Shown: piece by piece, positions 2,943-32,318 of the stretch
How the letters are laid out: the number at the start of each line of letters is the position of its first letter
Numbering within the stretch: the first letter of the stretch is position 1
Origin: Dehalococcoidia bacterium
Lineage (GTDB): Bacteria; Chloroflexota; Dehalococcoidia; Lucifugimonadales; UBA3495
Reading direction: 5' to 3'
NCBI GenBank assembly: GCA_963422765.1
Contig: OY730490.1
Coordinates: 1,613,861-1,677,860, forward strand
Length of the DNA: 64,000 nt
The notes under the pieces: model-generated
Seen by the model: only the letters and a program-made list of their open reading frames with translations
The model's database searches: none
Told to the model about the DNA's origin: nothing
Translations under genes and position numbers: made by a program

Positions 2943-4171
2943 GGTCGGGCAGTGGTCAGGCTGGGAAGTTTACGCAGACGCTCCACGAGGTCGGGCAGCA
3001 CTTCCAGCAGATAATCAACTTGTTCTGAGGTGTTATCCTTGCCAAGCGTAAGGCGCAGGCTGCCCCGAGCAACCTCCGCCGACTGCCCCAAGGCCAGCAA
3101 GACGTGGGAGGGTTCGAGGGAGCCGGAACTGCACGCGCTCCCGCTGGAGGCAGCGATGCCGGCCATATCCAGCCCCAGTAGTATCGGCTCGCCTTCGATT
3201 CCTGAAAAGGAGAAATTCGCGTTGTTGGGCAGCCGCCGGGTGGCATGGCCGTTGAGCTTGCTGCCAGGCACTCGCTCCAGCACCTGCTCAACGATACGAT
3301 CACGCAGGGCAGCGCATCGGCGGCTATTCTCCTCCCGCTGAATGTTGGCGGTCTCCAGCGCCACGGAAAGGCCGACGATACCTGGAATGTTTTCGGTGCC
3401 TGAGCGCCGCTCCCGCTCCTGGCCGCCTCCCAGTATGAAAGGCAGGAACGCAGTCCCGCGGCGAATGAAGAGGACACCGGTTCCCTTGGGTCCATGGAAC
3501 TTATGGCCCGACAGGCTGAGCAGGTCTACTCCCAGCTTCTGCACGTCAAGGTCCAGGTATCCGGCGGCCTGCACCGCATCGGTATGCAACACGATGGTGC
3601 GGGAAAGCTCAGCAGCCCGTTGCTTCACTACTGCCGAGATCTCCGATATCGGGTTGATTACGCCAATCTCATTGTTCGCGTACATCACGGACACCAGCGT
3701 GGTCTGCCCGGTAATCGCCCGGAATACCGTTTCCGGCTGTACTATACCGTTGGTGTCCACTGGCAGATAGGTGACTTCGTAGCCCTGAGATTCCAGGTGC
3801 TGGCAGGTGTGCAGAACCGCGTGATGCTCCACACCGGAAGTGATGATATGGTTTCCGGTCTCTTGCAGGGCGGTGGCGACGCCCACGATAGCGGCGTTGT
3901 CCGATTCGGTGCCGCCGCCGGTGAACACCACCTCGCGGGGGCGGCAGTTAAGTTCCCGCGCCACCCGCTCCCGGGCTTCATCCAGAGCGTAACGAGCCCC
4001 CTGCCCCACGGTGTGGATACTGGAAGGGTTGCCGAACAGCTCCGTGAAATACGGGGTCATCGCCCGCAACACTTCCGGCGCCAGGGGAGTGGTGCCTGCG
4101 TGGTCCATGTAGACTATGCCGCCAGTGTTCCGGTTCTGCGTCATCCTTGCTGCTTCTGCCGCTTGTCGCAT
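2939..4171 (-). CDS. Cysteine desulfurase, NifS/IscS family (PLP-dependent)
   Basis: [13 protein letters not shown]-lysine motif and SSGSACSSG active-site Cys loop. Confidence 0.85.
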
Positions 4172-8335: not shown

Positions 8336-10255
8336 ATGGCGAGCAGACAGGATGAAGGCCCCCGCGACTGGCGACGCAGGCGACGTAACCGTCCCGCCCA
8401 AGAACGGCCAGCGCAGAGCGAAACCGCCCCAGCCGGGGAACTCGAAGATTCTTCGGCAGTCTCCGGTGAAGAGACGGAGGAACAGGCTTCCCGCACCCTG
8501 ATCAGCTTCCTTGACCCGGCCTTGGATGCCGTCGGCATTTTCGGCGCGCCGCTCCTGATTGCCGGCATCATCGGCTTGGTCACCGGCATCGTAGTCGTCG
8601 CCTTCGTAAGCTCGATGCGGCTGTACGGCTACATTGATATCGCCATCGGAGCGTCTCTCATTGCTCTGGTGGGAGCGGTGTTCATCAGCACCGTAATCGC
8701 CGCTTTCCTGAGCCGCACGGGCCGCTACGGCATCAACACCGTGATTCTGCTGGCGGCGTTCACCGGCACAGTAATCGTGATAAATATAATTTCCTTTCAG
8801 AATACTCAGCGGGTGGACGTTACCGCCACCAACCAGTTCAGCCTTTCGGAGCGCACCAAAGACCTGCTGGGCAGCCTGGAGGATGACATCCGCGCCACCG
8901 CCTTCTACAAGGCGCTGGAAGATACTCCCGACGCCAACGTGGCGGCCCGGCGCAACCGGGTGGCGGACACGCTGGAGGAATTCGACGCCCGTTCCAGCAA
9001 GTTCGCCTACCGGGTCGTGGATCCTGACCTGGAGCCTGGCATCGTGGCCTCCTACTTCGGGGCGCGGCCCACCGGATTCGTCAGCGAGACCGTGGTCATC
9101 GAAAATTTGACTACCGGCGAGTTTGACTCGCTCCAACCCACCGACTTGGCCTTTGGAGAGTTGGAGCAGGATCTAGTCACCAGCATCTACGTCGCCACCG
9201 GGCAGGAGCGGAAGACTATCTATTTCCTCGCCGGACATGGCGAGCGCAACATAGGTAGCGGTAGCGGAGACGGCTACGTTCTTCTGCGACAAGCCCTGGA
9301 ACAGGAAAACTACCAGGCAATGGGGTTGGTCTGGCCGCGAAATGACACCGGGGTGGAAGTGCCCGAAGACGCCGCGTTAGTGGTGGTGGCCGGGCCGACT
9401 TCCGACTTGCCGGACGCCCATGCCCAGGCCCTTGACCTCTACCTGCTGGGGCGAGATGTCGAAGGCCAGCGGCGCCGGGAAAACGGCAGAATGATTTTCC
9501 TGGCTGAACCGGACACCCCGGAATCATGGCGGAGTTTCCTGGTCCAGTGGGGAATCATTCTTTTGCCCGGATACATCCGGGACGTTGAAGCATCGGTGCC
9601 TGGGCTTCCTCAGACGCTGACGCTGAACATGGACTTCAACAACATCGTAAATTTCAATCTGCTGGTCTTGGGGAATAACGAAGCGGCGGCCCAAAACGCC
9701 TTAGAGACGGCCTTTGAAATCATAGCGCCGAAAGGACAGCAGTTGCAGGACGTGTTCATGCCTGACGCCGCCGCGCTCAGCCCTCTTCCCGTTAATGATG
9801 GATCGAGGCTGCCGCTGGCCTTGGCCGTCACCTCGCCCGACAGCTACATTATCGGCGATCCGGCCCGTACCGACCCGATTACCGAGGGCGAGGACGCCGA
9901 CGTGCGAGGCCCCTTCATTCCGGCGATCCTGATGCGATCTGCGGGAAAGGTCGGTATGCCCCTGCCCGAAGAGGGCCCGGCAGATACCGACATCTCGCTG
10001 ATTCTCGCGCTTGGAGACGCCGATTTCGTTGCCAATAACAGCATCGGGCGGGGTAGCAGCCTGGATATGTTCCTCAATTCCACCAACTACCTGCTGGGGG
10101 ACTACTCGCTGGTGTCCATCCGGCCCAAGGCGCTGCCTTGGCGAGAGTTCAATCTGGACCGCAATGAATACGACTTCGTGCGTTTTTCATCATGGTTGTT
10201 TCTGCCGGGCTTGATGGCATTAGCCGCCGGACTGGTCTGGTGGATACGGCGATAG
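8336..10255 (+). CDS. GldG-like ABC-transport auxiliary protein
   Basis: 639 aa with N- and C-terminal TM anchors around a large extracytoplasmic domain. It sits after the ABC-2 ATPase/permease pair, as in gldAFG-type operons. Confidence 0.55.
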   Translation: MASRQDEGPRDWRRRRRNRPAQERPAQSETAPAGELEDSSAVSGEETEEQASRTLISFLDPALDAVGIFGAPLLIAGIIGLVTGIVVVAFVSSMRLYGYIDIAIGASLIALVGAVFISTVIAAFLSRTGRYGINTVILLAAFTGTVIVINIISFQNTQRVDVTATNQFSLSERTKDLLGSLEDDIRATAFYKALEDTPDANVAARRNRVADTLEEFDARSSKFAYRVVDPDLEPGIVASYFGARPTGFVSETVVIENLTTGEFDSLQPTDLAFGELEQDLVTSIYVATGQERKTIYFLAGHGERNIGSGSGDGYVLLRQALEQENYQAMGLVWPRNDTGVEVPEDAALVVVAGPTSDLPDAHAQALDLYLLGRDVEGQRRRENGRMIFLAEPDTPESWRSFLVQWGIILLPGYIRDVEASVPGLPQTLTLNMDFNNIVNFNLLVLGNNEAAAQNALETAFEIIAPKGQQLQDVFMPDAAALSPLPVNDGSRLPLALAVTSPDSYIIGDPARTDPITEGEDADVRGPFIPAILMRSAGKVGMPLPEEGPADTDISLILALGDADFVANNSIGRGSSLDMFLNSTNYLLGDYSLVSIRPKALPWREFNLDRNEYDFVRFSSWLFLPGLMALAAGLVWWIRR

Positions 10256-10310: not shown

Positions 10311-11339
10311 ATGAATGTTAGGCTAACTATTCTGATGGTCGTGATAGTCGCCATTGCCGGGGGCGCCTGGGCCATCATCGAGTTCACCGGCATTGTGACC
10401 CGGGGCGAAGTCAAAGAAGACGAGCCTTGGCTTTACAGCATAGACGAAGGGACCATAGCCCATATCCATGTGACGCACGGCGGAAAGTCGGTAGAGTACG
10501 CCCGCGCTTCGGGAAGCTATCAATGGATGATTCTGGGGGATCCCAACTACCCGGTATTTCAGCAGAAATGGGGCGGAACCCCCCTTCTGCTCAGTGGGCC
10601 AAGGGTCAACCGGGGGCTGAAGGAAACCATCGTGAACCCTGCCGACTACGGACTTGATCCGCCGGAAAGCATCGTTCGCGTGTCTGATTGGTCAGGCAAT
10701 ACTTTCGAATTTCACATGGGCATACCAACGCCCGACGGAGCCAACCAGTACACCAGGCTGGTGGGGGACGATGCCCTTTTCACTCTTCCTTCGGTATGGG
10801 CCGACGTCGTCAATCGTCTGGCTCTGGAACCGCCCTATGGCCGGCTGTTCGACTTGGAATTGGAATTCATCCGGGTGGTGGAGGTCACTGCCGGAGAATC
10901 AACGGCGGTCTACTTCCTGGAAGGCGACCAGTGGCTGGTAACCGAAGGCCCGCCACCGGTGAACCCGGAATCTGCTGCTCCTGTGTCTGAAGCGTGGCCA
11001 AAGTGGCTGGCCGCGCTCGCCGCTCCGCGGATTGACGAGATTGTAGAGCAGCAGGTCAATGACCGAGACACCGAAAAGCTGGCGGAGTATGGGTTTGACG
11101 ACCCCGCAGTGCGTGTGGTCATAGCCCGCCGCGGCCAGGCCGCCATCGAGTTCAACTTGGCCGAAGGACCTCCGGGCAGCGACAGCTACTATGCCAGGAC
11201 GTTAGACTACTCCGATGAAAAGCTATACTTGATGAAGAAGGCGCGGCTGAAAGGCATCGAAGCCCTGGCCTCCAAGCCCCTCGTCTTTCCCGGCTGGCAA
11301 CCGCCCGAAGAACCGGATGAAGATGAGACGCAGAACTGA
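10311..11339 (+). CDS. DUF4340-like exported protein, fourth gene of the GldG-type ABC operon
   Basis: N-terminal TM/signal anchor. The position after the gldG-like gene matches the common DUF4340 association. Confidence 0.45.
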   Translation: MNVRLTILMVVIVAIAGGAWAIIEFTGIVTRGEVKEDEPWLYSIDEGTIAHIHVTHGGKSVEYARASGSYQWMILGDPNYPVFQQKWGGTPLLLSGPRVNRGLKETIVNPADYGLDPPESIVRVSDWSGNTFEFHMGIPTPDGANQYTRLVGDDALFTLPSVWADVVNRLALEPPYGRLFDLELEFIRVVEVTAGESTAVYFLEGDQWLVTEGPPPVNPESAAPVSEAWPKWLAALAAPRIDEIVEQQVNDRDTEKLAEYGFDDPAVRVVIARRGQAAIEFNLAEGPPGSDSYYARTLDYSDEKLYLMKKARLKGIEALASKPLVFPGWQPPEEPDEDETQN

Positions 11340-11432: not shown

Positions 11433-12680
11433 ATGAAAGCTGAAATTATGGGCATCGGCACAGAATTGCTGATGGGAGAACTCAACGACACCAACGCCGG
11501 CTGGATAGCAACCCGTTTACCGCCGTTGGGTATCACATTGCAATGGGTAACACTGGTGGGGGATGACCTGGCCCAGTTGACCCATGCCTTCCATAAGGGC
11601 CTCGAACGCTCCGACATCATCTTCACCACCGGCGGGCTCGGCCCAACGCAGGATGACCTGACCCGCGAGGCAGTGGCGGCAACCTTGGGTGAGACGCCCG
11701 CGGTGCAGGAGGATATGGTTGACCAGCTCCGGGGGTATTTCCGCAACCGCGGCCAAGATATGCCTTCGCACAACATCAAACAGGCCTGGCTGATTCCTTC
11801 GGCGCAGTTCATTCCCAACCACAACGGCACGGCACCCGGCTGGTGGGCAGAGCGCGACGGCAAAATCATCATCATCATGCCCGGCCCGCCGGTGGAAATG
11901 CAGGCTATCTTCCGCGAGCAGGTGGAACCGCGCCTGCGGGAACTGGTCACTGAGGAAGTCACCATCACCCGCAATGTCAAGACTATGGGGCTGGGCGAGG
12001 CTGCGGTGGACGAAATTATGTCTGAGTATTTCGGGCGCGAAAACCCCTATCTCGGCATCTACTCCAAGGCGGACGGCATACACCTGCGAGTGATTGCCCG
12101 CGCCGACGACGAGGCCACTGCCCGCCGTATGATCGCGCCAACGGAGCAGGCAATAAAGGACCGGCTGGGTGAATACATCTGGGGATACGACGACGAAACT
12201 CCGGAGCAGGCGGTGGCGCAGGCCCTCCAGTCGCGGGGCAAGACTCTGGCGGTGATGGAATACTGCACCGGCGGGTTCCTGACCAACACCATCACCGAAG
12301 CCAACGACGCCCAGCGCCACTTCCGGGGCGGCATCGTGACCTTCGGCGCAGAGTCGCTGGCGGCGTCCGGCGTCCCGCCGGCGCTGCTGGACAACCACGG
12401 CGCGGTCAGCCAGGAAACGGCCAACGCCATGGCCTCCGCCGCCCTGGCGCAACTGAACGCCGACTACGGCATCGGCGTAACCGGCGCCCCCGGCCCCGCC
12501 GAGCTGGACGGGCGACCCATGGGCCTGGCCTACGTCGCCATCGCCCGCGCCGCCAATGCCAGACCGCAGGTCATCAAAGAGCTTGAACTCCGAGTCCCGC
12601 CCCGCCGAATCACTATCAAGCGCCGAATAAGCAACCAGGCCCTGATAGAGCTGCATAAACTGGTGGAGGCCGGGGAGTAA
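11433..12680 (+). CDS. cinA: CinA family protein (MoCF-like domain plus nicotinamide-nucleotide amidohydrolase PncC domain)
   Basis: The N-terminus [24 protein letters not shown] is typical of CinA. Size is ~415 aa. ATG at 11433 chosen over the longer track ORF. Confidence 0.75.
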
Positions 12681-12715
12681 GAGTGTGGCAGAATAGGAGG
12701 TCTGGGGAGAGGCCA

Positions 12716-14239
12716 ATGAGAATCGTTGCGTTGATTTTCCTGGCCGCCGCATTCGCGCTGGCAGCTTGTACCGGCAGCCAAACTGAACCGCCACCAGACA
12801 TTGACGCCACAGTAGCGGCGGGAGTCCGGGCAACCCAAGAAGCGGAAGCGGCGATAGACGCCACCGTGCAGGCGCGCGTCGCCGCCACGCTCACCACGCC
12901 ATACCCCACGGCAACGCCCTATCCCACCGCTACTCCATATCCCACAGGTACACCCTTTCCCACAGCTACTCCATACCCCACAGCTACGCCCTTTCCCACG
13001 CCGACGCCAAGGCCTACACCAACGCCACGCCCCACTCCGACGCCAAGGCCTACACCGACACCCAAGCCTACTCTAACGCCTCGTCCGGCGCCCACGCCAA
13101 GACCGACTTTGTCGCCAGGCGAGAGGCTGTCGCTGACCCAATATGCGGACAGACACGCTGGCGGGCCCGGCGCCATCTACATTGGCGACGGCAACTGGGA
13201 AGCCCTGGTAGGCCCGGCGGTTACTGAAGGAGCCATTGAGGAATTTGGCGAAGACCTCGCCATTTCTCTGGGCGACGACGAAGGCAACGTTCCACTCGAC
13301 GCTATCGCTGATATCCAGTGGGCCTTCGAGTCGGATTACTACCGCTCGCTACCGGAAAAGGCCAGGCTGACTAATCCCACAGAGCTGGTTAGCCAGGGCG
13401 AAAGCATTACGCTACAGCACGCCTGCATCAACCGGACTCTGCTCTGGTGCAAGCACATGGACGCCTATTTCGTCCCCAACGTGCTGGAGCGCACCAACGG
13501 ACAGGTCAAGATTGAAATTACCTCCTTCCCGGAACTGGGCCTGGCCGGGTTCGATACCATGTCTCTACTGGCTGAAGGAACACTGTCCCTCTCGGAGATT
13601 TACGGCGGTTACGTGGGCGGCGAATTTCCCACCCTGGCCGTGCAGTACCTGTGGGGACTGTGGCCCAACCACCAGACCCACTACGAAGCGCTGACCAACA
13701 TTTTCGATGACATCGATAAGGTGATTAAGGACGAAACCGGCGCCCAGGTGCTGTTCCGCAACTGGATTGCCGGCGACGACCAGTTCTTCTTCAGCAAGTT
13801 CAAGCTGGAAAAACCCGAGGACTTCAAGGGCCTCAAGACCCGCAGCCACAGCACTGAGCTGTCTGACTGGATCAACTACATGGGCGCCAACGCTCAGGCT
13901 ATGGCCTTCGCCGAAGTTTACACCGCCCTGGAGCGCGGCATCCTGGATGCCGGCGTAACCGGAGCCAACCCCGGCCTCTCGCAGCGGTGGTACGAAGTGA
14001 CCGACTATATGAATGGGCGGCTGTACAGCTTCAACTCCACCACCAACGTGGTAAACAAGGACGTGTGGGACGGCATTCCCGCCGACCTGCAACAAATCCT
14101 GCTGGAAGAGGGCGCCAAGCATGAACTTGAAGCCCTTCGCCTGACTGCCATCCACAACGTCACCGGCATCTCCCGGAACGTCGAGGCCGGTCTGGAGCTG
14201 GTGGAGTTCGGCCCCGAAATTCGAACGCAGAGCTTCTGA
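12716..14239 (+). CDS. TRAP-transporter solute-binding lipoprotein (DctP family) with Pro/Thr-rich linker; ends at an in-frame TGA
   Basis: Signal peptide with lipobox LAAC, then a PT repeat linker and a DctP-like body (FRNWIAGDD..., LKTRSHS..., [15 protein letters not shown]). The frame stays open for 65 more codons after the TGA (see findings). Confidence 0.7.
12893..13113 (+). repeat. Coding tandem repeats: (TPYPTA)n followed by (TPRPTP)n
   Basis: The translation reads [72 protein letters not shown]. Confidence 0.9.
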
Positions 14240-25140: not shown

Positions 25141-26421
25141 TCAAAGCAGCGCCGCCTGCTGCCCGTCACCATCCGCCTCGGACCAGACCCGCACCGCGCC
25201 GTACTGACCGTCAAAGCCCGGCTCGGCCACTACTTTTCCGGTGCGGGCCCTCAGGATAGCTTCAGCCACCTTGTCCCCGGCCACCTGACGCAAATCCGCA
25301 GCATCCGCCCAAGCCAGCGCCGCCAGTTCGTTGCCAAGCTCGGCGCACAGCCTCTGGTAGACTTTTGCCACGGCCTTGCTGCGCCGGCCCACGCCCAGAG
25401 TCTCCGCCAGCAGTTCCTCCAAGGGAACCAGCCGCAGGAAAGGCGGGCGTTCATTTAGCGGACGAATGAATCCGTCCGCGCCAGGCCCCACCGCGTAGCT
25501 TTCTCCTTCGCAGGATCCGGAAGACAGCGAGCGCACCCGGTGCAGCACTCCCAAAGTCAGCGGACGCTCACACACCGGACAGCGTCCGTTGCCCTGCGCG
25601 GCAGTTTCCAGAGGAGACTGCCTCAACCCGCAGTTACGGTGTCCGTTGAAGTGATATTTACCCTCTTCGGGATAAAACTCCACGGTATAGGCTACTGCGT
25701 TACGTTCCACAGCTTCCTTGAGACACCCATACGTAGGCTCGCCTCTGAATACGGTGACTTCCCGCCCCAAGTTGGGCAGCGAATGGGCGTCGGAAAAGGA
25801 GAGGATGGCCCGGTCTTCTAACCCGGGAATTTCCCAATTCATGGCCGGATCGCTGGAAAGCCCGGTTTCCACTGCGCGAATCTGCGGCGTCGACTCCCCG
25901 AAGCATTCTTCCAGGCTATCGAAGCCTGACACCGAACCCAGCAAACCGTACCAGGGCGTCCAGAGATGAGCGGGTATCACCATCGCCCCGGGGTCAACGT
26001 CCAGCGCGAGGAACGCCAGTTCCGCCGCCGAGAGTCCAACCGACGGGCGCCCGTCGCCTTCCAGCTTGACGCCCCGCCGGGAAAGTTCCGCGTTGAACCG
26101 CTTTACCCCTTCCAGCGACGGCATAAACAGCAACAAGTGAAGCCGCCGGGCTTTGCCGCCCTGCCGGTAAACGCAGCTAACCTCCGTGCCTAAAACGAAG
26201 TTGACGCCACCATACTCAAAAGTTCCATCGCCTATCGGAGTGAGGTTTGATTCCAACTCCGCCAACCACGCGGGGTGCGTGAAGTCGCCGGTTGCCAGCA
26301 GCCCGATGCCCTTGGTTTTCGCCGCGGCCGCCAGGTTTGGTAGCGTGAGGTTCCTGCTGCACGCATAGGCGTAGCGGGAATGGATGTGGAGGTCGGCGAC
26401 AAATTCGTGCTGGACGTTCAT
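25141..26421 (-). CDS. PHP-domain protein resembling endonuclease Q (TIGR00375-like)
   Basis: N-terminal DLHIHSRYAYACSR PHP motif, GDFTHPAW, and a CxxC zinc-finger-like element CPVCERPLTLGVLHRV. Length is 426 aa. The assignment is from memory of EndoQ architecture. Confidence 0.55.
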   Translation of the reverse strand: MNVQHEFVADLHIHSRYAYACSRNLTLPNLAAAAKTKGIGLLATGDFTHPAWLAELESNLTPIGDGTFEYGGVNFVLGTEVSCVYRQGGKARRLHLLLFMPSLEGVKRFNAELSRRGVKLEGDGRPSVGLSAAELAFLALDVDPGAMVIPAHLWTPWYGLLGSVSGFDSLEECFGESTPQIRAVETGLSSDPAMNWEIPGLEDRAILSFSDAHSLPNLGREVTVFRGEPTYGCLKEAVERNAVAYTVEFYPEEGKYHFNGHRNCGLRQSPLETAAQGNGRCPVCERPLTLGVLHRVRSLSSGSCEGESYAVGPGADGFIRPLNERPPFLRLVPLEELLAETLGVGRRSKAVAKVYQRLCAELGNELAALAWADAADLRQVAGDKVAEAILRARTGKVVAEPGFDGQYGAVRVWSEADGDGQQAALL

Positions 26422-26571
26422 CTTGGGAGTCTACCACAAGGCAAAACCGCCGGGCTGATCACCACGGCGGCCTTTCCTAGCCGCCGTTCCACTCGCATTA
26501 GGCGGAATGCGGCCACAAAGAACAAAATGATTATTGGCATATCCCGCCTCATGAATGTCTGTCTCCCAAAA

Positions 26572-26712: not shown

Positions 26713-26904
26713 TTAAAACAGGTTGGTGGACACCGGGACGGAAAACAGTCCCGCCAGCAGATAGAGCGCCCCTAGTCCAATACTCCAGTATCCCAACCAC
26801 CTGAGCAACGGATGCTCCCCCTTAAAGACCAGCAGCATCCCCAAGGACGCAGGTATGGCGGCAGTGATGACTGTTTCCGCGATTCCCACAATTGTGAATG
26901 CCAT
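26713..26904 (-). CDS. 63-aa two-TM mini-protein (paralogue of 28091-28405)
   Basis: RBS GGGAGGTAATAGAG before the ATG. It shares LLRxxGxWSIGLGALxLLxG with the paralogue. Confidence 0.6.
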   Translation of the reverse strand: MAFTIVGIAETVITAAIPASLGMLLVFKGEHPLLRWLGYWSIGLGALYLLAGLFSVPVSTNLF

Positions 26905-26951: not shown

Positions 26952-27605
26952 TCAGTGAGTGGCCGACGCAATGTATGTCCCATCACCGTATTGCCGCTTC
27001 GTGATCGACGGATATTTGTGAGTGTGGCAATCGGAGCCGTCGCATATCCTGAAATGGCCTTGGACGTAGTCCCAGTGTTCCCACTGGTTCTTTCCGCCGC
27101 CTGAGCTTTGATTGATATTGCCTACATACTCCCATCCTGGCCAGTGCACCGTCCCGCGAATGCGGATTTCGGGGGCAGAGGTGATTCGGGAGCCATCCCA
27201 ACACCATCTCGTGTCAGAGTGGAACTTGAACATATCCACGTTGACAAAGAAGATGCGTTCTTCCCAAACATAGATTAATTTCTGCGTCGCGCAATTAACG
27301 GCACCGGAATCCGCTTGGCCAAAACCTTCATGTTCACTGGGAAGGAAATTGGTCTCCAATGTTACTTCCAACCTGCCATTACCCCTTTCGGACACAAATT
27401 TCTGAACTGCTTGGCGCTCTGCCGGGCTCAGTTGATTAAGCGCCTCTTCCCGGTCTCCGGCCTGAGCTATCTCTGCTGCAATACCTTCGACCACCTCCGG
27501 GTCGTCAAGGTCGGGTGGGGGTTCCTGAGCCTGCACACCTCCTGCGACGGCGAATAACAGGGCCGCCAGCGCCAGGATAACCGTGAGTTTGATTCTGGCT
27601 GTCAT
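26952..27605 (-). CDS. Secreted Cys-containing protein of unknown family (intact paralogue)
   Basis: Signal peptide [37 protein letters not shown]. Shares the motifs CAT, WCWDG and PGW with the copy at 29341-30143. Confidence 0.65.
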   Translation of the reverse strand: MTARIKLTVILALAALLFAVAGGVQAQEPPPDLDDPEVVEGIAAEIAQAGDREEALNQLSPAERQAVQKFVSERGNGRLEVTLETNFLPSEHEGFGQADSGAVNCATQKLIYVWEERIFFVNVDMFKFHSDTRWCWDGSRITSAPEIRIRGTVHWPGWEYVGNINQSSGGGKNQWEHWDYVQGHFRICDGSDCHTHKYPSITKRQYGDGTYIASATH

Positions 27606-27682
27606 GGTTCACACCCCCTTGCGCTCTGCCTCCATTCGGCGGATTTGGCCTTTCCGCTTTAGCCTGGAGAGCTGATACATCA

Positions 27683-27711
27683 TTTATATCAATAAAAACT
27701 ATCACTGTCAA
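27683..27711 (-). promoter_or_regulatory. Strong sigma-70-like promoter (module copy A)
   Basis: On the - strand: TTGACA, 17-nt spacer, TATAAA. Conserved at 30221-30249. Confidence 0.55.
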
Positions 27712-27714
27712 CGT

Positions 27715-27730
27715 TGTGAAAACAATCACG
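27715..27730. promoter_or_regulatory. CRP/FNR-type palindrome TGTGA-N6-TCACG abutting the -35 (copy A)
   Basis: TGTGAAAACAATCACG. The identical sequence is at 30253-30268. Confidence 0.35.
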
Positions 27731-27843
27731 ATATTATGTATTCATAAATAGATGTTGCAGGCTCCTCCAGTCTTAGGCCCGGAAAACCGGCGCTACGAAC
27801 CGGCGAACCAGCCTATAAAAGCGGATCCCTCAGTTGAGGCATC

Positions 27844-27890
27844 CCGCTGCTTACCCGGCTTGGCCGCTTGGATTAAGTGGCGAGGCATGG
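27844..27890. repeat. 47-nt dispersed repeat R, copy 1
   Basis: CCGCTGCTTACCCGGCTTGGCCGCTTGGATTAAGTGGCGAGGCATGG, 46/47 identical to 28632-28678. Confidence 0.9.
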
Positions 27891-27938
27891 AATCGTAATC
27901 TGTTACGCTAGTAGAATCCCTTGTCCCCGCTGGTCGGA

Positions 27939-28094
27939 TTACCAGACAGGCTTCCGGCTCTTCCAGTAACGGTAGCCGCCATACGCCGCAAACGCCGCAG
28001 CCGCCAAGTTTGGCAGCGTGCGGTTCTTGCTCCAGGCATAGGCGCAGCGGGAATGGATGTGGAGGCCGGCGACAAATTCCTGTTGGGCGTTCAT
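27939..28094 (-). pseudogene. Duplicated 5' fragment of the endonuclease-Q-like gene (51-codon remnant)
   Basis: It encodes MNAQQEFVAGLHIHSRCAYAWSKNRTLPNLAAAA..., compared with MNVQHEFVADLHIHSRYAYACSRNLTLPNLAAAA at 26421. The upstream hairpin region is also duplicated (to about 28145). Confidence 0.8.
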
Positions 28095-28405
28095 CCCGCG
28101 AGTCTGACACAAGGCAAAACCGCCGGGTTTGCAAACCCGGCGGCATAGCGGAAAGCGGGTGAGGAGGCCGGAACGCCCGATAACCCTGTCAGTTTCTCAT
28201 CCTTGAGCCGCCTCGAAGGGCGCAGGCAGTAGCAGCAGCCAACGAGGAATCCCAAGAGCAAGACCAGAGCGCCCAGACCAATACTCCAGAAGCCCATCGA
28301 GCGAAGGAGCGGGGAGTATGCTTTGGCGACTAGCACTCCGCCGGCGGAGGCTGGCGCTACTGCGATGATGATCACTACAGCGAACCAGGTGAACGTCTCT
28401 GCCAT
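28091..28405 (-). CDS. Two-TM mini-protein paralogue with C-terminal extension (104 aa)
   Basis: The ATG at 28405 is preceded by AAGGAGGTGATTAAA. The core is homologous to 26713-26904. The reading frame runs on into duplicated non-homologous sequence and ends in an ATGA overlap with the endoQ fragment. Confidence 0.55.
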   Translation of the reverse strand: MAETFTWFAVVIIIAVAPASAGGVLVAKAYSPLLRSMGFWSIGLGALVLLLGFLVGCCYCLRPSRRLKDEKLTGLSGVPASSPAFRYAAGFANPAVLPCVRLAG

Positions 28406-28491
28406 TTTAATCACCTCCTTGTCTTGAGGTCTGCCGGTTTCTAGGGATTCAATCACGGGGCGCTCTGTCCGTCCTCTGTTGTTCTTGGTCT

Positions 28492-28617
28492 CTACTGGCC
28501 ACTCAAAATCCAACTGGAAGTCCCATCTGCATACTGGTACTTCGTTACCGACGGGTACTTGTGATATGCGCAGGCACTCGTGAATGGCAGGCAGAGCTTG
28601 AAGTGACCTTCGACGGG
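28492..28617 (-). pseudogene. C-terminal remnant of a third secreted-protein paralogue fused to the leader
   Basis: It translates to PVEGHFKLCLPFTSACAYHKYPSVTKYQYADGTSSWILSGQ*, which aligns with VQGHFRICDGSDCHTHKYPSITKRQYGDGTY of 26952-27605. No start codon or signal peptide is present. Confidence 0.7.
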
Positions 28618-28631
28618 CGGACTTGGCCTTT

Positions 28632-28678
28632 CCGCTGCTTACCCGGCTTGGGCGCTTGGATTAAGTGGCGAGGCATGG
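28632..28678. repeat. 47-nt dispersed repeat R, copy 2
   Basis: 46/47 identical to 27844-27890. Confidence 0.9.
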
Positions 28679-28732
28679 GAGAGGCTCTGTTTCTGTTCGG
28701 AATCCTAGCGTAGGAAAGCATCCGCAAACCGG

Positions 28733-29314
28733 CTACCCGGCCAAGGACATCACTGAATACACACCTAGGATGCCTGCGAGGCTGATAAGACCTGTCCCCA
28801 TCCACCATACAGCCGAATTTCGTGGGTCCCGGACCAATATCACTCCCAGCATCGCCGGTATAGCAGCCCAAGCGGCAGACTCAATGAGAAATAGAGTAAC
28901 GTAGACCGCCTGCGAAAGGGTGGGGGCCGTCTCCATGGTTAACAAAGCGCCGGTCAAGCCCTCAATGGAAGCGGAAACCGCATTTATCCCGGAAGCCTCT
29001 AGGATCCATATAACTGGAAGGGCAAGAAGCGCGAAAACCGCCCGGTTTGCAACGCCAGGGTGCCGAGGGCCACGCCATACTGTGCAGACAGCCACCGGAA
29101 AAGCCCCCAGACAGACTAACGGCAACAACCTGAATCCCCAACCCAAAAGAAACGGCCGACCGGAAAGGTCTACGAATCCCGCTACCAGGCTGGCAACACA
29201 GACTACACCCAGGGCCGCTCCTATTGCCTGGGTCGCTCCATTCTGTGCATAACGAGATAATGACTCGCTTGCTAGGGCTACGCAGAGGGCGGCGATTAGA
29301 TATTCCTCATCCAT
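28733..29314 (-). CDS. Polytopic membrane protein, unknown family (193 aa, about 6 TM)
   Basis: Hydrophobic helices run throughout the protein. It lies immediately downstream of the decayed secreted-protein gene. Confidence 0.45.
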   Translation of the reverse strand: MDEEYLIAALCVALASESLSRYAQNGATQAIGAALGVVCVASLVAGFVDLSGRPFLLGWGFRLLPLVCLGAFPVAVCTVWRGPRHPGVANRAVFALLALPVIWILEASGINAVSASIEGLTGALLTMETAPTLSQAVYVTLFLIESAAWAAIPAMLGVILVRDPRNSAVWWMGTGLISLAGILGVYSVMSLAG

Positions 29315-29340
29315 AGGTCACCCACCAACCCCAAATTCCC

Positions 29341-30143
29341 TCAGCCATCTACTGGCACAAAGGCCCGAGACCTGGGTGAACAGTGCATTCGGGGGGTTGC
29401 CGTGCAAGAAGATGTCCCGTCACCGTTATGGCGTTTGGATACCGACCCCATAACTTCACTCCAACACCAGATAAAGCAGTATTGAAATTTGCCTATAGCG
29501 GCGTCTTCGTGAAATAAATCCCCTTGTGTTCCGTAGCTTTGTTTACTTGTGTTCCGTAGCTTTGTTTAATGGTGTGCCTCTGAAATTACCAGCCAGGGCC
29601 GGGGGTATAAGCGTTCACTTGAAAGAGCGGCTCAGACGCAATGCTCACCCCGTCCCAGCACCAATAAGTCGATGACCGGTAGCGCCACTTTGGGTCGCCG
29701 GTTCTGCCGTAGTCTTCAGCAGTTCTTGTGTGCGTAGCGCAGGAGGTGCTTGCCAGCAAGCCGTCAGGGGCATCAAACAGAGCAGACGTATCCAGCACAT
29801 CTCCTTCAGCAGCTTTCAGTTGAGGTTGAATAACCGCCCATTCGGCCGGATTATCGATAGCCCAACGAATGCTATTTTTCGCCCACGCCAGAAGCTCTGC
29901 CGTTTCGCCATCAGACAATTCTGAGGAATAAGTGTGCTTTAAAACGGCTGCCAGTTGTTCATCCGACAGTTTGGATGCTTCCAGAGCCCGGTCATCTGCT
30001 GAGAACACCTTCCCGGCCAGATTTTTGACCACCTCCGGGTCGTCAAGGTTGGGTGGGGGTTCCTGAGCCTGCACACCTCCTGCGACGGCGAATAACAGGG
30101 CCGCCAGCGCCAGGATAACCGTGAGTTTGATTCTGGCTGTCAT
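29341..30143 (-). pseudogene. Secreted-protein paralogue disrupted by a TAA nonsense codon and a 23-bp tandem duplication
   Basis: It has the same signal peptide as 26952-27605. The TAA at 29586-29588 aligns with a Glu (PGW-E-Y) in the intact paralogue. With one duplication copy removed, the downstream frame continues into homologous ...GKFQYC...SKRHNGDGT. Confidence 0.7.
29523..29568. repeat. Perfect 23-bp tandem duplication
   Basis: CTTGTGTTCCGTAGCTTTGTTTA occurs twice in tandem. Confidence 0.95.
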
Positions 30144-30220
30144 GGTTCACACCCCCTTGCGCTCTGCCTCCGACGGGCGGACTTAGACTTCCTTTTTTAG
30201 CCAGGGGATCTAATATATCG

Positions 30221-30249
30221 TTTATATCAATAAAAATTATCACTGTCAA
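30221..30249 (-). promoter_or_regulatory. Strong sigma-70-like promoter (module copy C)
   Basis: On the - strand: TTGACA, 17-nt spacer, TATAAA. Confidence 0.55.
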
Positions 30250-30252
30250 TGT

Positions 30253-30268
30253 TGTGAAAACAATCACG
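30253..30268. promoter_or_regulatory. CRP/FNR-type palindrome TGTGA-N6-TCACG (copy C)
   Basis: TGTGAAAACAATCACG, identical to 27715-27730. Confidence 0.35.
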
Positions 30269-30490
30269 ATATTGTGTATCTGGCATGATGATTTTGCGTC
30301 TTTAGCTTTCAACTTCACGGCTCGAAACCGGCGGAGGTAACCCGCCGACGGCTCGTGGCCTCTGTCCCGCCCTTGACCGGCGGCGAAGGCGGTTTTATTC
30401 TTTATGATATAAATCTTCAACTGTCTTACATTTTGTCCGTCTGTCCGTCTCAATAACCCCGTCTCAATAACCAGGGAGGAAAGGAGAGCA

Positions 30491-32098
30491 ATGCCAGCCA
30501 AGAGCATTATCAGCGACCAAGCCGCGCAGCAGGCCCTGTTGCACGGCATCTCCATGGTGTCCAATGCGGTCGGGCGCACTCTGGGGCCCAAGGGCCGCAA
30601 CGTGGCCGTGGAAAAGAAATGGGGCGCCCCGGTCATCACCAACGACGGCGTCACCATCGCCAAAGAGGTGGAGCTGCCCGAATCCTTCGAGAATATGGGC
30701 GCCCAGCTAATCAAGGAGGCCGCCAGTAAGACCAACGACGTGGCCGGCGACGGCACTACTACCGCCACCGTGCTGGCCCATACCATCGTCCGCGAGGGTA
30801 TGCGGAACGTGGCCGCCGGGGCCGATCCCATGGCCATCAAGCGCGGGCTGGACAAGTGCGTTCAAGCCTTGGTGAAAGAGCTGGCCGGAATCTCGACGCC
30901 GGTGCAGGGCCGCGATCAGATGTCCCAGGTCGCCACAATTTCCGCCAACGACAGCGAGATCGGCAATATGCTGGCCGACGTGCTGGAGCAGGTGGGAGCC
31001 GAGGGCGTGGTCACCATCGAAGAAGGCAAGGGCGTCGAATCCGAGACCGAGTACGTCGAGGGCATGAACTTCGACCGCGGCTACATCAGCCCCTATTTCG
31101 TCACCAACCCAGAGCGGATGGAATCCGTCATTGAGAGTCCACATATTCTGGTGACAGACAAAAAAATCTCCTCGGCCGCCGAGCTGGTGCCAGTCCTGGA
31201 GAGCGCGCTTCAGGTCACCCGCAACCTGGTGGTCATCGCCGAAGACGTGGAGAGCGAGGCGCTGGCGGTTCTGGTGGTCAACAAACTGCGCGGCACCATC
31301 AACTGCCTGGCGGTAAAGGCCCCAGGATTCGGTGACCGCCGCAAGGCCATGCTGGAAGACATAGCCATCCTCACCGGCGCCCAAGTGGTGTCCGAAGAGC
31401 GGGGACGCCGGCTGGACCAAGCCACCGCCGCCGACCTCGGCCAAGCCCGGCGCATCGAAACCACTAAAGACCGCACCACCATCGTCGGCGGCAGCGGCGA
31501 CCCGGTGGATATTAAAGGCCGGGGCGAGCAGATACGGGTACAAATTGAGGAAACCACCTCCGAATACGACAAGGAAAAGCTCCAGGAACGGCTGGCCAAG
31601 CTGTCCGGCGGCGTGGCGGTGGTCAAGGTTGGCGCCCCCACGGAGCCAGAATTGAAAAACCGCAAGGCCCGCGTGGAAGACGCCCTGTCGGCCACCCGCG
31701 CCGCAGTGGAAGAGGGCATCGTCCCCGGCGGCGGCGTGGCCTACATCCGCGCTATGTCTGCGCTGGACGGCGCCAGTCTCACCGGCGACGAGGAAGTGGG
31801 CCGCACCATCCTTAGAAAAGCCTTGGAAGAGCCAGTGCGCATCATCGCCCGCAACTCCGGCGGAGAGCCCGCCGTGGTGGTGGACGAGGTGCGCCGCAAC
31901 AGCGCCCGCAACTTTGGCTACGACGCGGCCCGCGGCGAGTTCGGCGATATGGTGGAGCGGGGCATCATTGACCCGACCAAAGTATCTCGCTCGGCCTTGG
32001 AGAACGCCTCCAGCGTGGCCGGCATGATACTGACCACCTACTCGCTGATTACTCCCGAGGAAGAGGAGAAACAGGACCACCACGGCCATCATCACTAG
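30491..32098 (+). CDS. groEL: Chaperonin GroEL (60 kDa) with His-rich C-terminus
   Basis: Canonical N-terminus ...[50 protein letters not shown]. It ends ...[12 protein letters not shown] instead of a GGM tail. Confidence 0.95.
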
Positions 32099-32169: not shown

Positions 32170-32283
32170 ATGCTTGCTTCAATGATGGTTTCCATCTGGA
32201 CCTGCGACAAGTGCGGCCACGAGAATGGCCCCATGCGCGACGTGTTCTGCGACAAGTGCGGCCAGCGCCGCCCCGGTTGGTAG
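32170..32283 (+). CDS. 37-aa zinc-ribbon mini-protein (two CxxC pairs)
   Basis: MLASMMVSIWTCDKCGHENGPMRDVFCDKCGQRRPGW. RBS GAGGTGA lies 6 nt upstream, and a 17-bp-stem terminator follows. It is below the 60-aa cutoff of the ORF track. Confidence 0.5.
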   Translation: MLASMMVSIWTCDKCGHENGPMRDVFCDKCGQRRPGW

Positions 32284-32318
32284 AACGGACAAGTCCAGCG
32301 ACGCGCGAGTCGCAGCAA

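Follow-up and report, generated by a model that had tools for sequence, protein, structure and literature searches.

Probable concerted evolution of a promoter and signal-peptide head shared by two anciently diverged secreted-protein genes in an uncultured Dehalococcoidia bacterium

Here, we describe two paralogous minus-strand genes in a 64,000-nucleotide (nt) stretch of DNA, the window, from a Dehalococcoidia bacterium (Lucifugimonadales; UBA3495; assembly GCA_963422765.1, contig OY730490.1, positions 1,613,861-1,677,860). We call them gene A and gene B. Each opens with a unit of ~255 nt running from the promoter to codon 39, which we call the head, and the remainder of each gene is its body. 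The heads are nearly identical and the bodies are not. We consider it probable that this is concerted evolution, in which homologous recombination (non-reciprocal gene conversion) between the anciently diverged A and B has kept their heads alike.

The identity island in the window

The two copies, in direct orientation and 2.5 kb from each other, are flanked by groEL and an EndoQ-like gene. Realignment of 27489-27633 with 30027-30171 gave 144 identical positions out of 145. This block contains the ribosome-binding site (RBS), the ATG, the codons for a predicted Sec-type signal peptide of 26 residues, and those for the first 13 mature residues. The lone mismatch is at 27511/30049 and reads C/T on the plus strand, which makes the codon GAC (Asp) in gene A and AAC (Asn) in gene B. 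The first-pass annotation had described this block, with its coordinates and single difference, correctly in every particular except the strand, as the genes are read on the minus strand. Codons 1-39 agree at 116/117 nt and 38/39 amino acids (aa), and the shared N-terminus of both proteins continues [D/N]LDDPEVV. Past codon 39, a protein-guided alignment shows 142/336 nt (42%) and 33/112 aa (29%) in common. Given the rate in the body, the binomial probability of the head identity is ~3e-42.

On the 5' side, the 28 nt preceding the ATG, which hold the RBS, are identical (28/28). The next 108 nt, comprising leader and promoter, match at 88 positions; most mismatches fall in the leader, whereas the promoter core keeps ~94% identity. 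Farther 5', the match is at the random level (24/100). The divergence 3' of the block and the loss of identity in the leader, with recovery at the promoter, are therefore as first described, and alignment region by region gives a sharp island and not uniform divergence. A repeat search returned the whole unit as a 256-nt direct repeat, D1, at 91% identity. A 93-nt core occurs exactly twice in the window and was absent from all 100 shuffles.

The elements of the head are listed in Table 1. The palindromic box, the -35, and the -10 are kept in every related locus that we recovered (alignment A4); the box with TTGACA-17-TATAAA is kept in the window and in the related contigs L001, L002, L006, and L008, and partly in L004. 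The box pattern occurs four times in the window versus 0.67 expected. A promoter consensus scan that needs T at position 6 of the -10 skipped TATAAA, and the head promoters were found by eye and by conservation. Judged by these elements, both genes would be transcribed from identical sigma-70-type promoters under one palindrome-binding regulator.

By inspection, the signal peptide appears to have the n-h-c layout, beginning MTARIK and ending AGGVQA/QEPPP (the slash marks the predicted cleavage site), with a putative small-x-small motif. A lipobox Cys is absent, with no Cys within the first 100 residues. Both proteins are thus predicted to be cleaved after VQA and exported by the Sec route. An AlphaFold 2 (AF2) model of A has a helix at residues 3-20, coil at residues 21-35, and the first helix of the domain from residue 36. 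In the model, the end of the head coincides with the start of the folded protein, at the junction between linker and helix 1. We rejected a riboswitch or other structured RNA: an Rfam search of leader and head gave no match at E<=1, and the 5' untranslated region together with the head is less stably folded than its shuffled versions (z = +1.3 and +1.6).

The heads in a sister genome and in other lineages

Through the B protein we reached a sister genome, L001, a 775-kb contig from an independent ENA assembly that is syntenic with the window and 94-96% identical to it. In L001, the two heads and two bodies stand in the order of the window. The duplication is therefore older than the split between the window and L001, because both genomes hold both genes and heads in order. 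The same two heads in the same arrangement in an independent assembly also answer the doubt, raised with the first description, that the block might be a chimera.

We aligned the four heads (alignment A2: winA and winB from the window, L001_A and L001_B from the sister) and classed every variable column. A site was called crossed if winA matches L001_B and winB matches L001_A. From column 22, just 5' of the box, to column 275, at codon 39, four sites group by genome, three are crossed, and none follows orthology. Outside these columns, 53 sites follow orthology, with none grouped by genome and none crossed. For example, both window copies read GCC-GTC-GCA where both L001 copies read GCC-ATG-GCA (GTC/ATG at codon 20), and at another site the window copies have CCA and the L001 copies CCG. 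In the leader, the L001 B copy resembles the A copies, and the window B copy is the outlier. Since the split, sequence has moved between the copies at least twice and over different tracts, which points to gene conversion. The last event in the window lineage was recent, because one difference in 145 nt is seen versus ~6-8 expected at 4-6% orthologous divergence. Recent gene conversion had been suggested from the window itself, and the comparison with the sister genome supports it, with the head grouped by genome or crossed and the flanks grouped by orthology.

L001 differs from the window in several further respects. It lacks 28086-28688, the region of a third, remnant module (module C, see below), and has ~140 unrelated bases instead. 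Its gene A (12056-12720) is pseudogene-like and carries three indels, namely one extra base in a C run (+1), one missing base (-1), and a duplicated stretch of 11 nt. Assembly error could account for the homopolymer changes but probably not for the 11-nt insertion. Separately, the head holds two homopolymers, a G5 run in the RBS (27612-27620) and a C5 run at codons 29-31 (27513-27521), and the L001 A copy (near 12040-12140) has one additional base in both. This could reflect chance, sequencing error, or slippage-prone tracts. L001 also has ~865 extra bp between groEL and promoter B (8917-9782), including a 144-aa open reading frame (ORF), that are absent from the window.

A second lineage carries one body type per contig. 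The A-type protein P0005 (contig L004) and the B-type protein P0010 (contig L089) share another, lineage-specific head (114/117 nt) with the peptide MNWRLKLTILLLLAVTTSIIFAGGVLAQGDPDLTD[L/P]AVVEAL. The two contigs come from two samples, and for each form there is a Logan assembly that contains it as well. The two genes occupy one and the same site, with groES immediately ahead of it and two small transmembrane (TM) protein genes, a ~206-212-aa membrane protein, and rimI behind it. By BLASTN, L004 and L089 are 96.1% identical from groEL through coding base 121 (codon ~40), and then the bodies do not align. Past the bodies, the two small TM genes are 93-95% identical, in swapped order, and rimI is 97.5% identical. 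From just past the breakpoint, the L004 body is like the A type and the L089 body like the B type of the window lineage.

Across the window lineage and the second lineage, heads go with lineage and bodies with type. Heads have an identity of 0.97-0.99 within a lineage (116/117 and 114/117 nt) and 0.71-0.72 between lineages. Body identity is 0.39 over 170 aa for A-A pairs and 0.47 over 142 aa for B-B pairs; A-B pairs reach 0.28-0.32, or give only ~33-aa local matches. The first-pass annotation had also raised an exchange of mature domains behind a fixed head, and the second lineage supports it, since one locus there has an A-type body in L004 and a B-type body in L089 behind a common head. The second-lineage forms arose either by recombination between the heads of a tandem ancestor, deleting one module in each descendant, or by exchange of cassettes between strains with the head as the left arm.

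Furthermore, head and body are incongruent in a third lineage, that of contigs L092 and L094. P0057, P0062, and P0084 share MKFHKTILTLLA..LAVIGTT..VV.A before bodies that are 27-40% identical. L092 carries P0057 and a second, frame-broken copy 4.5 kb upstream. These two copies match at 193/209 upstream positions (92%) and 79/84 signal-peptide bases (94%), then at 30/82 (37%). When the upstream copy is compared with P0062, on another contig, the bodies match at 69/100 and the upstream regions at only 148/193. Head sharing is thus a recurrent trait of the family, with head/body incongruence in three lineages, and the 3' edge of the head is a recurrent recombination breakpoint. A scan of JGI metagenomes for a 27-nt core of the head found nothing.

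Two observations on the heads of relatives stand apart from this. In L092, a ~200-nt conserved upstream region (3304-3441 and the region before 8001) holds a small ORF preceded by an RBS (45 aa as called), and the window lineage lacks it. At L006 3163 and L008 ~560, ATA stands at the position of the ATG, with the other signal-peptide codons intact. Gene callers use an internal Met or split the gene at these two loci, which could have a non-canonical start or a decaying gene.

The protein family and the layout of the locus

Gene A and gene B belong to a family of uncharacterised, apparently secreted Chloroflexota proteins. A first word-index protein search found six relatives, and searches of this kind reach only 6-12 members, so an exhaustive hidden Markov model (HMM) search was needed. 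Among 1.84 billion cluster representatives, it returned 443 at E<=0.001 and 158 at E<=1e-10. The few named members are called "hypothetical protein [Chloroflexota bacterium]." A scan of GTDB species representatives with a family pattern gave no relative, and one with GroEL placed the organism near Dehalococcoidia/Chloroflexota MAGs, the best match being 67%. Members are ~200 aa long; the signal peptide is followed by a short helical domain (AxDP..AF..L.P.EQ.AV) and a beta-rich domain with a conserved Cys and the motifs WCxDG, GGxG, QGHF..C, and YPxIxKxQYGDG. Gene A follows this plan, with a three-helix N-domain and a beta-rich C-domain that has the conserved Cys, WCxDG, and QGHF..C..YPxIxKxQYGDG. 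The AF2 model of A (26955-27605), built on a 49-sequence alignment, has a mean predicted local distance difference test score (pLDDT) of 87.6, with values of at least 95 over most of the beta domain.

Despite this confident model, the family is unrecognised in the resources that we searched. Its members have no Pfam match; A, B, and the membrane proteins have none in Pfam, NCBIfam, PADLOC, or PHROGs. There is no PDB match by sequence profile or by fold, and none in BFVD by fold (Foldseek E<=0.001). The model may therefore represent a fold without a solved relative.

A is closest to P0002-P0004, then to P0007/P0008. Without its head, B is closest to P0010 (43% over 230 aa when the out-of-frame tail is counted) and P0048 (37%), proteins of 255-271 aa outside the A clade. 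By these relationships, A and B are members of two old subfamilies and not paralogues that drifted apart recently. Protein clustering and phylogeny are misled by the shared head, to which the A-B match score owed much. The proteins are probably extracytoplasmic and probably work with the adjacent small membrane proteins.

See Table 1 for the coordinates of all features.

Table 1. Features of the two heads and of the surrounding locus in the window
Feature	Position	Strand	Basis or remark
Head of gene A	27486..27741	-	direct repeat D1, coordinates verified
Head of gene B	30024..30279	-	same elements at +2538
Palindromic box GTGA-N6-TCAC (GTGATTGTTTTCAC)	A 27716-27729; B 30254-30267	-	sequence, conservation
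-35 TTGACA	A 27706-27711; B 30244-30249	-	sequence, conservation
-10 TATAAA	A 27683-27688; B 30221-30226	-	sequence, conservation
-35/-10 spacer, 17 nt	both heads		
Leader, ~70 nt	between promoter and RBS	-	transcription start predicted from sequence
RBS AAGGGGGTG	A 27612-27620; B 30150-30158	-	
ATG	A 27603-27605; B 30141-30143	-	
Predicted signal peptide, codons 1-26, ending VQA/Q	A 27605..27528	-	read by eye
Mature residues 27-39, QEPPPDLDDPEVV	A 27527..27489	-	
Gene A, 217 aa, intact, A-type	26952..27605	-	ORF; family HMM positions 1-207
Gene B, 185 aa, B-type, ends at in-frame TAA after GPGW	29586..30143	-	ORF, relatives
C-terminal remnant of gene B, out of frame	29344..29565	-	family HMM positions 151-206
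Polytopic membrane protein, 193 aa, downstream of B	28733..29314	-	ORF; homologues of 206-215 aa in L004, L008
Module C, remnant of a third (A-type) paralogue	28495..28678	-	repeats, family HMM 170-204
Small membrane protein of module C, 104 aa	28091..28405	-	repeat D5, ORF
Truncated duplicate: 5' end (~34 codons) and upstream of TIGR00375/EndoQ-like gene	27939..28144	-	repeat D2, ORF translation
47-nt repeat D4, copy 1, upstream of promoter A	27844..27890	-	98% identical to 28632-28678
Small two-TM protein, 63 aa, downstream of A	26713..26904	-	kept in relatives (58-70 aa)
Full-length TIGR00375/MJ0043_C (EndoQ-like PHP) gene	25141..26421	-	conserved right flank
groEL, divergently transcribed	30491..32098	+	conserved left flank in all relatives

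The locus as a whole is a decayed tandem array. Read along the minus strand from groEL, the order is head and body of B, the 193-aa TM protein, module C, the truncated endoQ-like copy, head and body of A, the 63-aa TM protein, and the EndoQ-like gene. A six-frame search with the family HMM found four pieces: the whole of A, B as far as profile position 147, the tail of B, and the module C remnant (28495-28638). Module C consists of a D4 copy and a 24-nt leader fragment (28607-28630) fused to the last ~35 codons, without promoter, ATG, and most of the gene. Its 104-aa protein is a diverged paralogue of the 63-aa protein downstream of A. The truncated endoQ-like copy (repeat D2, 27993-28144 vs 26320-26471) is also found in L001 and marks the end of a duplicated unit comprising the head, the secreted protein, the small TM protein, and the 5' part of the endoQ-like gene.

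Gene B stops prematurely relative to its 255-271-aa relatives. A perfect 23-nt tandem duplication (CTTGTGTTCCGTAGCTTTGTTTA x2, 29523-29568) lies just 3' of the stop and shifts the frame of the B remnant. Removing one of its copies restores a reading frame that aligns with the B-type relatives to their ends. In L001, the TAA of gene B is also present (near 10556), the 23-mer is single-copy, and ~70 codons past the TAA are still in frame. Between the window and L001, the codons of gene B differ synonymously at five places and non-synonymously at five, and among these changes is W161C in the conserved WCWDG motif. Two, and formerly three, family members share one expression and export head, and copies are gained, lost, and broken quickly.

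Several side observations concern the neighbouring genes. Over its C-terminal ~45 residues, the 193-aa membrane protein is similar to the small TM proteins of 58-70 aa, and the motif in common (AIPA.LG..LV....P.LRWLG....G.G.L.LL) suggests a shared two-helix module or a fusion. Relatives have a further operon gene of ~203 aa (L002 8445-9059, L006 4191-4799, L008 1563-2174), whose N-terminal part gives a weak match to the family HMM. After an N-terminal hydrophobic segment it has FDL[DN]DP[EQ]AA, which echoes PDLDDPEVV of the head; the two may represent a common signal for sorting or processing. The C-terminus of GroEL is a His-rich tail (32060-32098), and its gene is followed by a 37-aa ORF (32171-32284) with two CxxC pairs (MLASMMVSIWTCDKCGHENGPMRDVFCDKCGQRRPGW) that looks zinc-ribbon-like and is also called in L001.

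Competing explanations and known systems

Under the proposed mechanism, homologous recombination between the copies would homogenise the heads. The tract would end at codon 39 because homology between A and B ends there, the bodies being too different to recombine. Conversion would have been repeated over different tracts, from the RBS to codon 39 in the window lineage and over promoter and leader in the sister lineage. General recombination of the RecA type, limited by homology, is the presumed machinery. As a consequence, both bodies would receive the same regulation and the same export route, and the head would serve as a portable homology arm in which recombination can delete, replace, or swap a body. 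The second-lineage strains L004 and L089 would then represent the body-swap outcome, and swapping bodies may have adaptive value.

The best surviving alternative is allelic replacement at the population level, which we nevertheless judge unlikely. Here, A and B would be idiomorph-like alternative alleles of one locus, exchanged via conserved flanks; the head would be part of the left flank, the window genome would have taken up the two alleles in tandem, and their heads would be alike for having come recently from one gene pool. L004 and L089, with one type each at the same locus, fit this. The locus structure also differs between the window and L001, and two features suggest import from a diverged relative, namely the duplicated 5' endoQ-like fragment, which is only 84% identical to the resident gene, and the C-terminus of module C, which resembles the A-type of L004. 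However, the tandem arrangement of the two types is older than the 4-6% divergence between the two genomes that have it. Exchange between resident copies is still required, because the heads changed together after that split. Allelic replacement therefore complements gene conversion between the copies and does not exclude it.

Purifying selection on the head contributes as well. We compared codons for the same residue between winA and its single-copy orthologue in L002 and found 28/33 identical in the head versus 55/108 in the body (Fisher p=0.0005); the other two single-copy orthologue pairs point in the same direction, more weakly. Between relatives, no part of the protein is better conserved than the head peptide, and a 5' region that folds less stably than its shuffles is expected of selected initiation regions. 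Selection alone, with every base of the head functionally constrained and no recombination, is nonetheless very improbable. It cannot give the 99.3% identity of the paralogous heads (0.7% difference), since a difference of 11-33% is seen between orthologous heads, which are constrained alike. The derived changes shared by both copies of one genome (GTC->ATG at codon 20 and CCA->CCG) need transfer between copies, the leader has crossed variants, and the head/body incongruence in three lineages also argues against it. Selection adds to conversion, and constraint at the 5' end helps to keep homology sufficient for further conversion.

An assembly artefact, in which a repeat was collapsed or made chimeric, or polishing copied one head onto the other, has almost nothing left to recommend it: both sources are metagenome assemblies and the homopolymer indels of L001 gene A could be sequencing errors, but two independent assemblies have the same architecture, the P0005 and P0010 forms each occur in two independent assemblies, the block of 145-256 nt is far below long-read length, and unique sequence flanks it on both sides.

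Three other candidates were rejected, and a fourth is not supported. A diversity-generating retroelement or inverted-repeat switch would involve elements not present at the locus, which has no template/variable repeat pair and no inverted repeats. For a switch run by a site-specific recombinase, no recombinase gene is found among the neighbours in the window or L001, and both copies have complete promoters. The context is not that of a mobile element or prophage, as the neighbours are core genes (groEL, selA, coaE). As toxin-immunity cassettes, the genes give no toxin domain match, and the small TM genes, TM58 and TM70, are 93-95% identical behind A- and B-type bodies; the larger membrane protein does diverge between L004 and L089, so this last reading keeps some probability.

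Several points weigh against concerted evolution by gene conversion as we propose it. The conversion signal in the window lineage consists of few sites (4 + 3) and a single sister genome. Part of the head's conservation is due to selection on the nucleotides of the 5' end, and the difference between L004 and L089 could be allelic replacement between strains and not recombination within a genome. No alternative or recombinant junction was seen within the window genome itself. Gene B is truncated and L001 gene A carries three indels, so the system may be decaying rather than in use. Lastly, the window and L001 are both metagenome assemblies in which polishing could homogenise short repeats, although this is unlikely with long-read assemblies whose reads span the repeat.

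Among described systems, the closest architecture is that of the erp (OspE/F-related) lipoprotein genes of Borrelia burgdorferi, which we offer as a likeness and not as membership. In erp genes, the "upstream homology box" comprises a conserved promoter/operator, the leader peptide, and the first mature residues, at an allelic location and in front of diverse, recombining bodies (PMC10016077). Likewise, a predicted promoter and an operator-like box are conserved upstream of the members here, and codons 1-39 are conserved (38/39 aa) where the remainder is divergent (29%). The differences are considerable. The bodies here are distant homologues within one family, whereas erp bodies are unrelated sequences, and no homology to Erp proteins was found. 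The signal peptide lacks a lipobox (VQA/Q, no Cys). The locus lies in the chromosome, with groEL on one side and core genes on the other, unlike the cp32 prophage plasmids that carry erp, and the organism is a free-living uncultured Chloroflexota, unlike the host-associated pathogen Borrelia.

Other families share parts of this arrangement. The vsp genes of Mycoplasma bovis and vlp genes of Mycoplasma hyorhinis are tandem genes for repetitive lipoproteins, with near-identical 5' non-coding and signal-peptide regions and differing mature parts. Recombination in their 5' regions reshuffles the expressed body, and site-specific recombination or promoter-tract slippage switches a single active promoter; in our locus, both copies come with a complete promoter and the neighbourhood has no recombinase gene. 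The babA/babB adhesin genes and other outer-membrane paralogues of Helicobacter pylori have near-identical terminal segments and divergent central or functional parts, and RecA-dependent gene conversion makes chimeras of them. The bab loci are dispersed, with a known function as adhesins and with identity at both 5' and 3' ends, unlike the copies here, which are tandem and nearly identical at the 5' head. The contact-dependent inhibition (CDI) and Rhs polymorphic toxins combine a constant N-terminal with a variable C-terminal part, and have promoter-less downstream remnants and small membrane-protein genes after the bodies. Module C, as a promoter-less downstream remnant, is like their orphan cassettes. 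However, no toxin domain or demarcating motif was found here, the constant part is a signal peptide and linker only, and the small TM genes, so similar across the L004 and L089 body types, do not behave as cognate immunity genes.

The proposed process is a known kind of concerted evolution, and what is new is the uncharacterised protein family in uncultured Chloroflexota in which it occurs. We regard the case as of moderate interest, because the boundary is unusually clean, the pattern extends over three lineages, and the family is unexplored. It offers a well-bounded example in a free-living uncultured lineage, where head-sharing families have mostly been described in pathogens, and a promoter and signal-peptide module that is a breakpoint for mature-domain exchange in at least two lineages. 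More tentatively, and with doubt on our part, the heads could belong to a Chloroflexota-wide modular system. In such a system, a lineage-specific head would act as a recombination and expression adaptor with which strains of free-living bacteria swap, stack, or discard alternative extracellular bodies, of a fold without a solved relative, under diversifying or frequency-dependent selection, acting for example on phage receptors, cell-cell recognition, or bacteriocin-like competition. If true, this would be an environmental counterpart of the surface-antigen cassette systems of pathogens.

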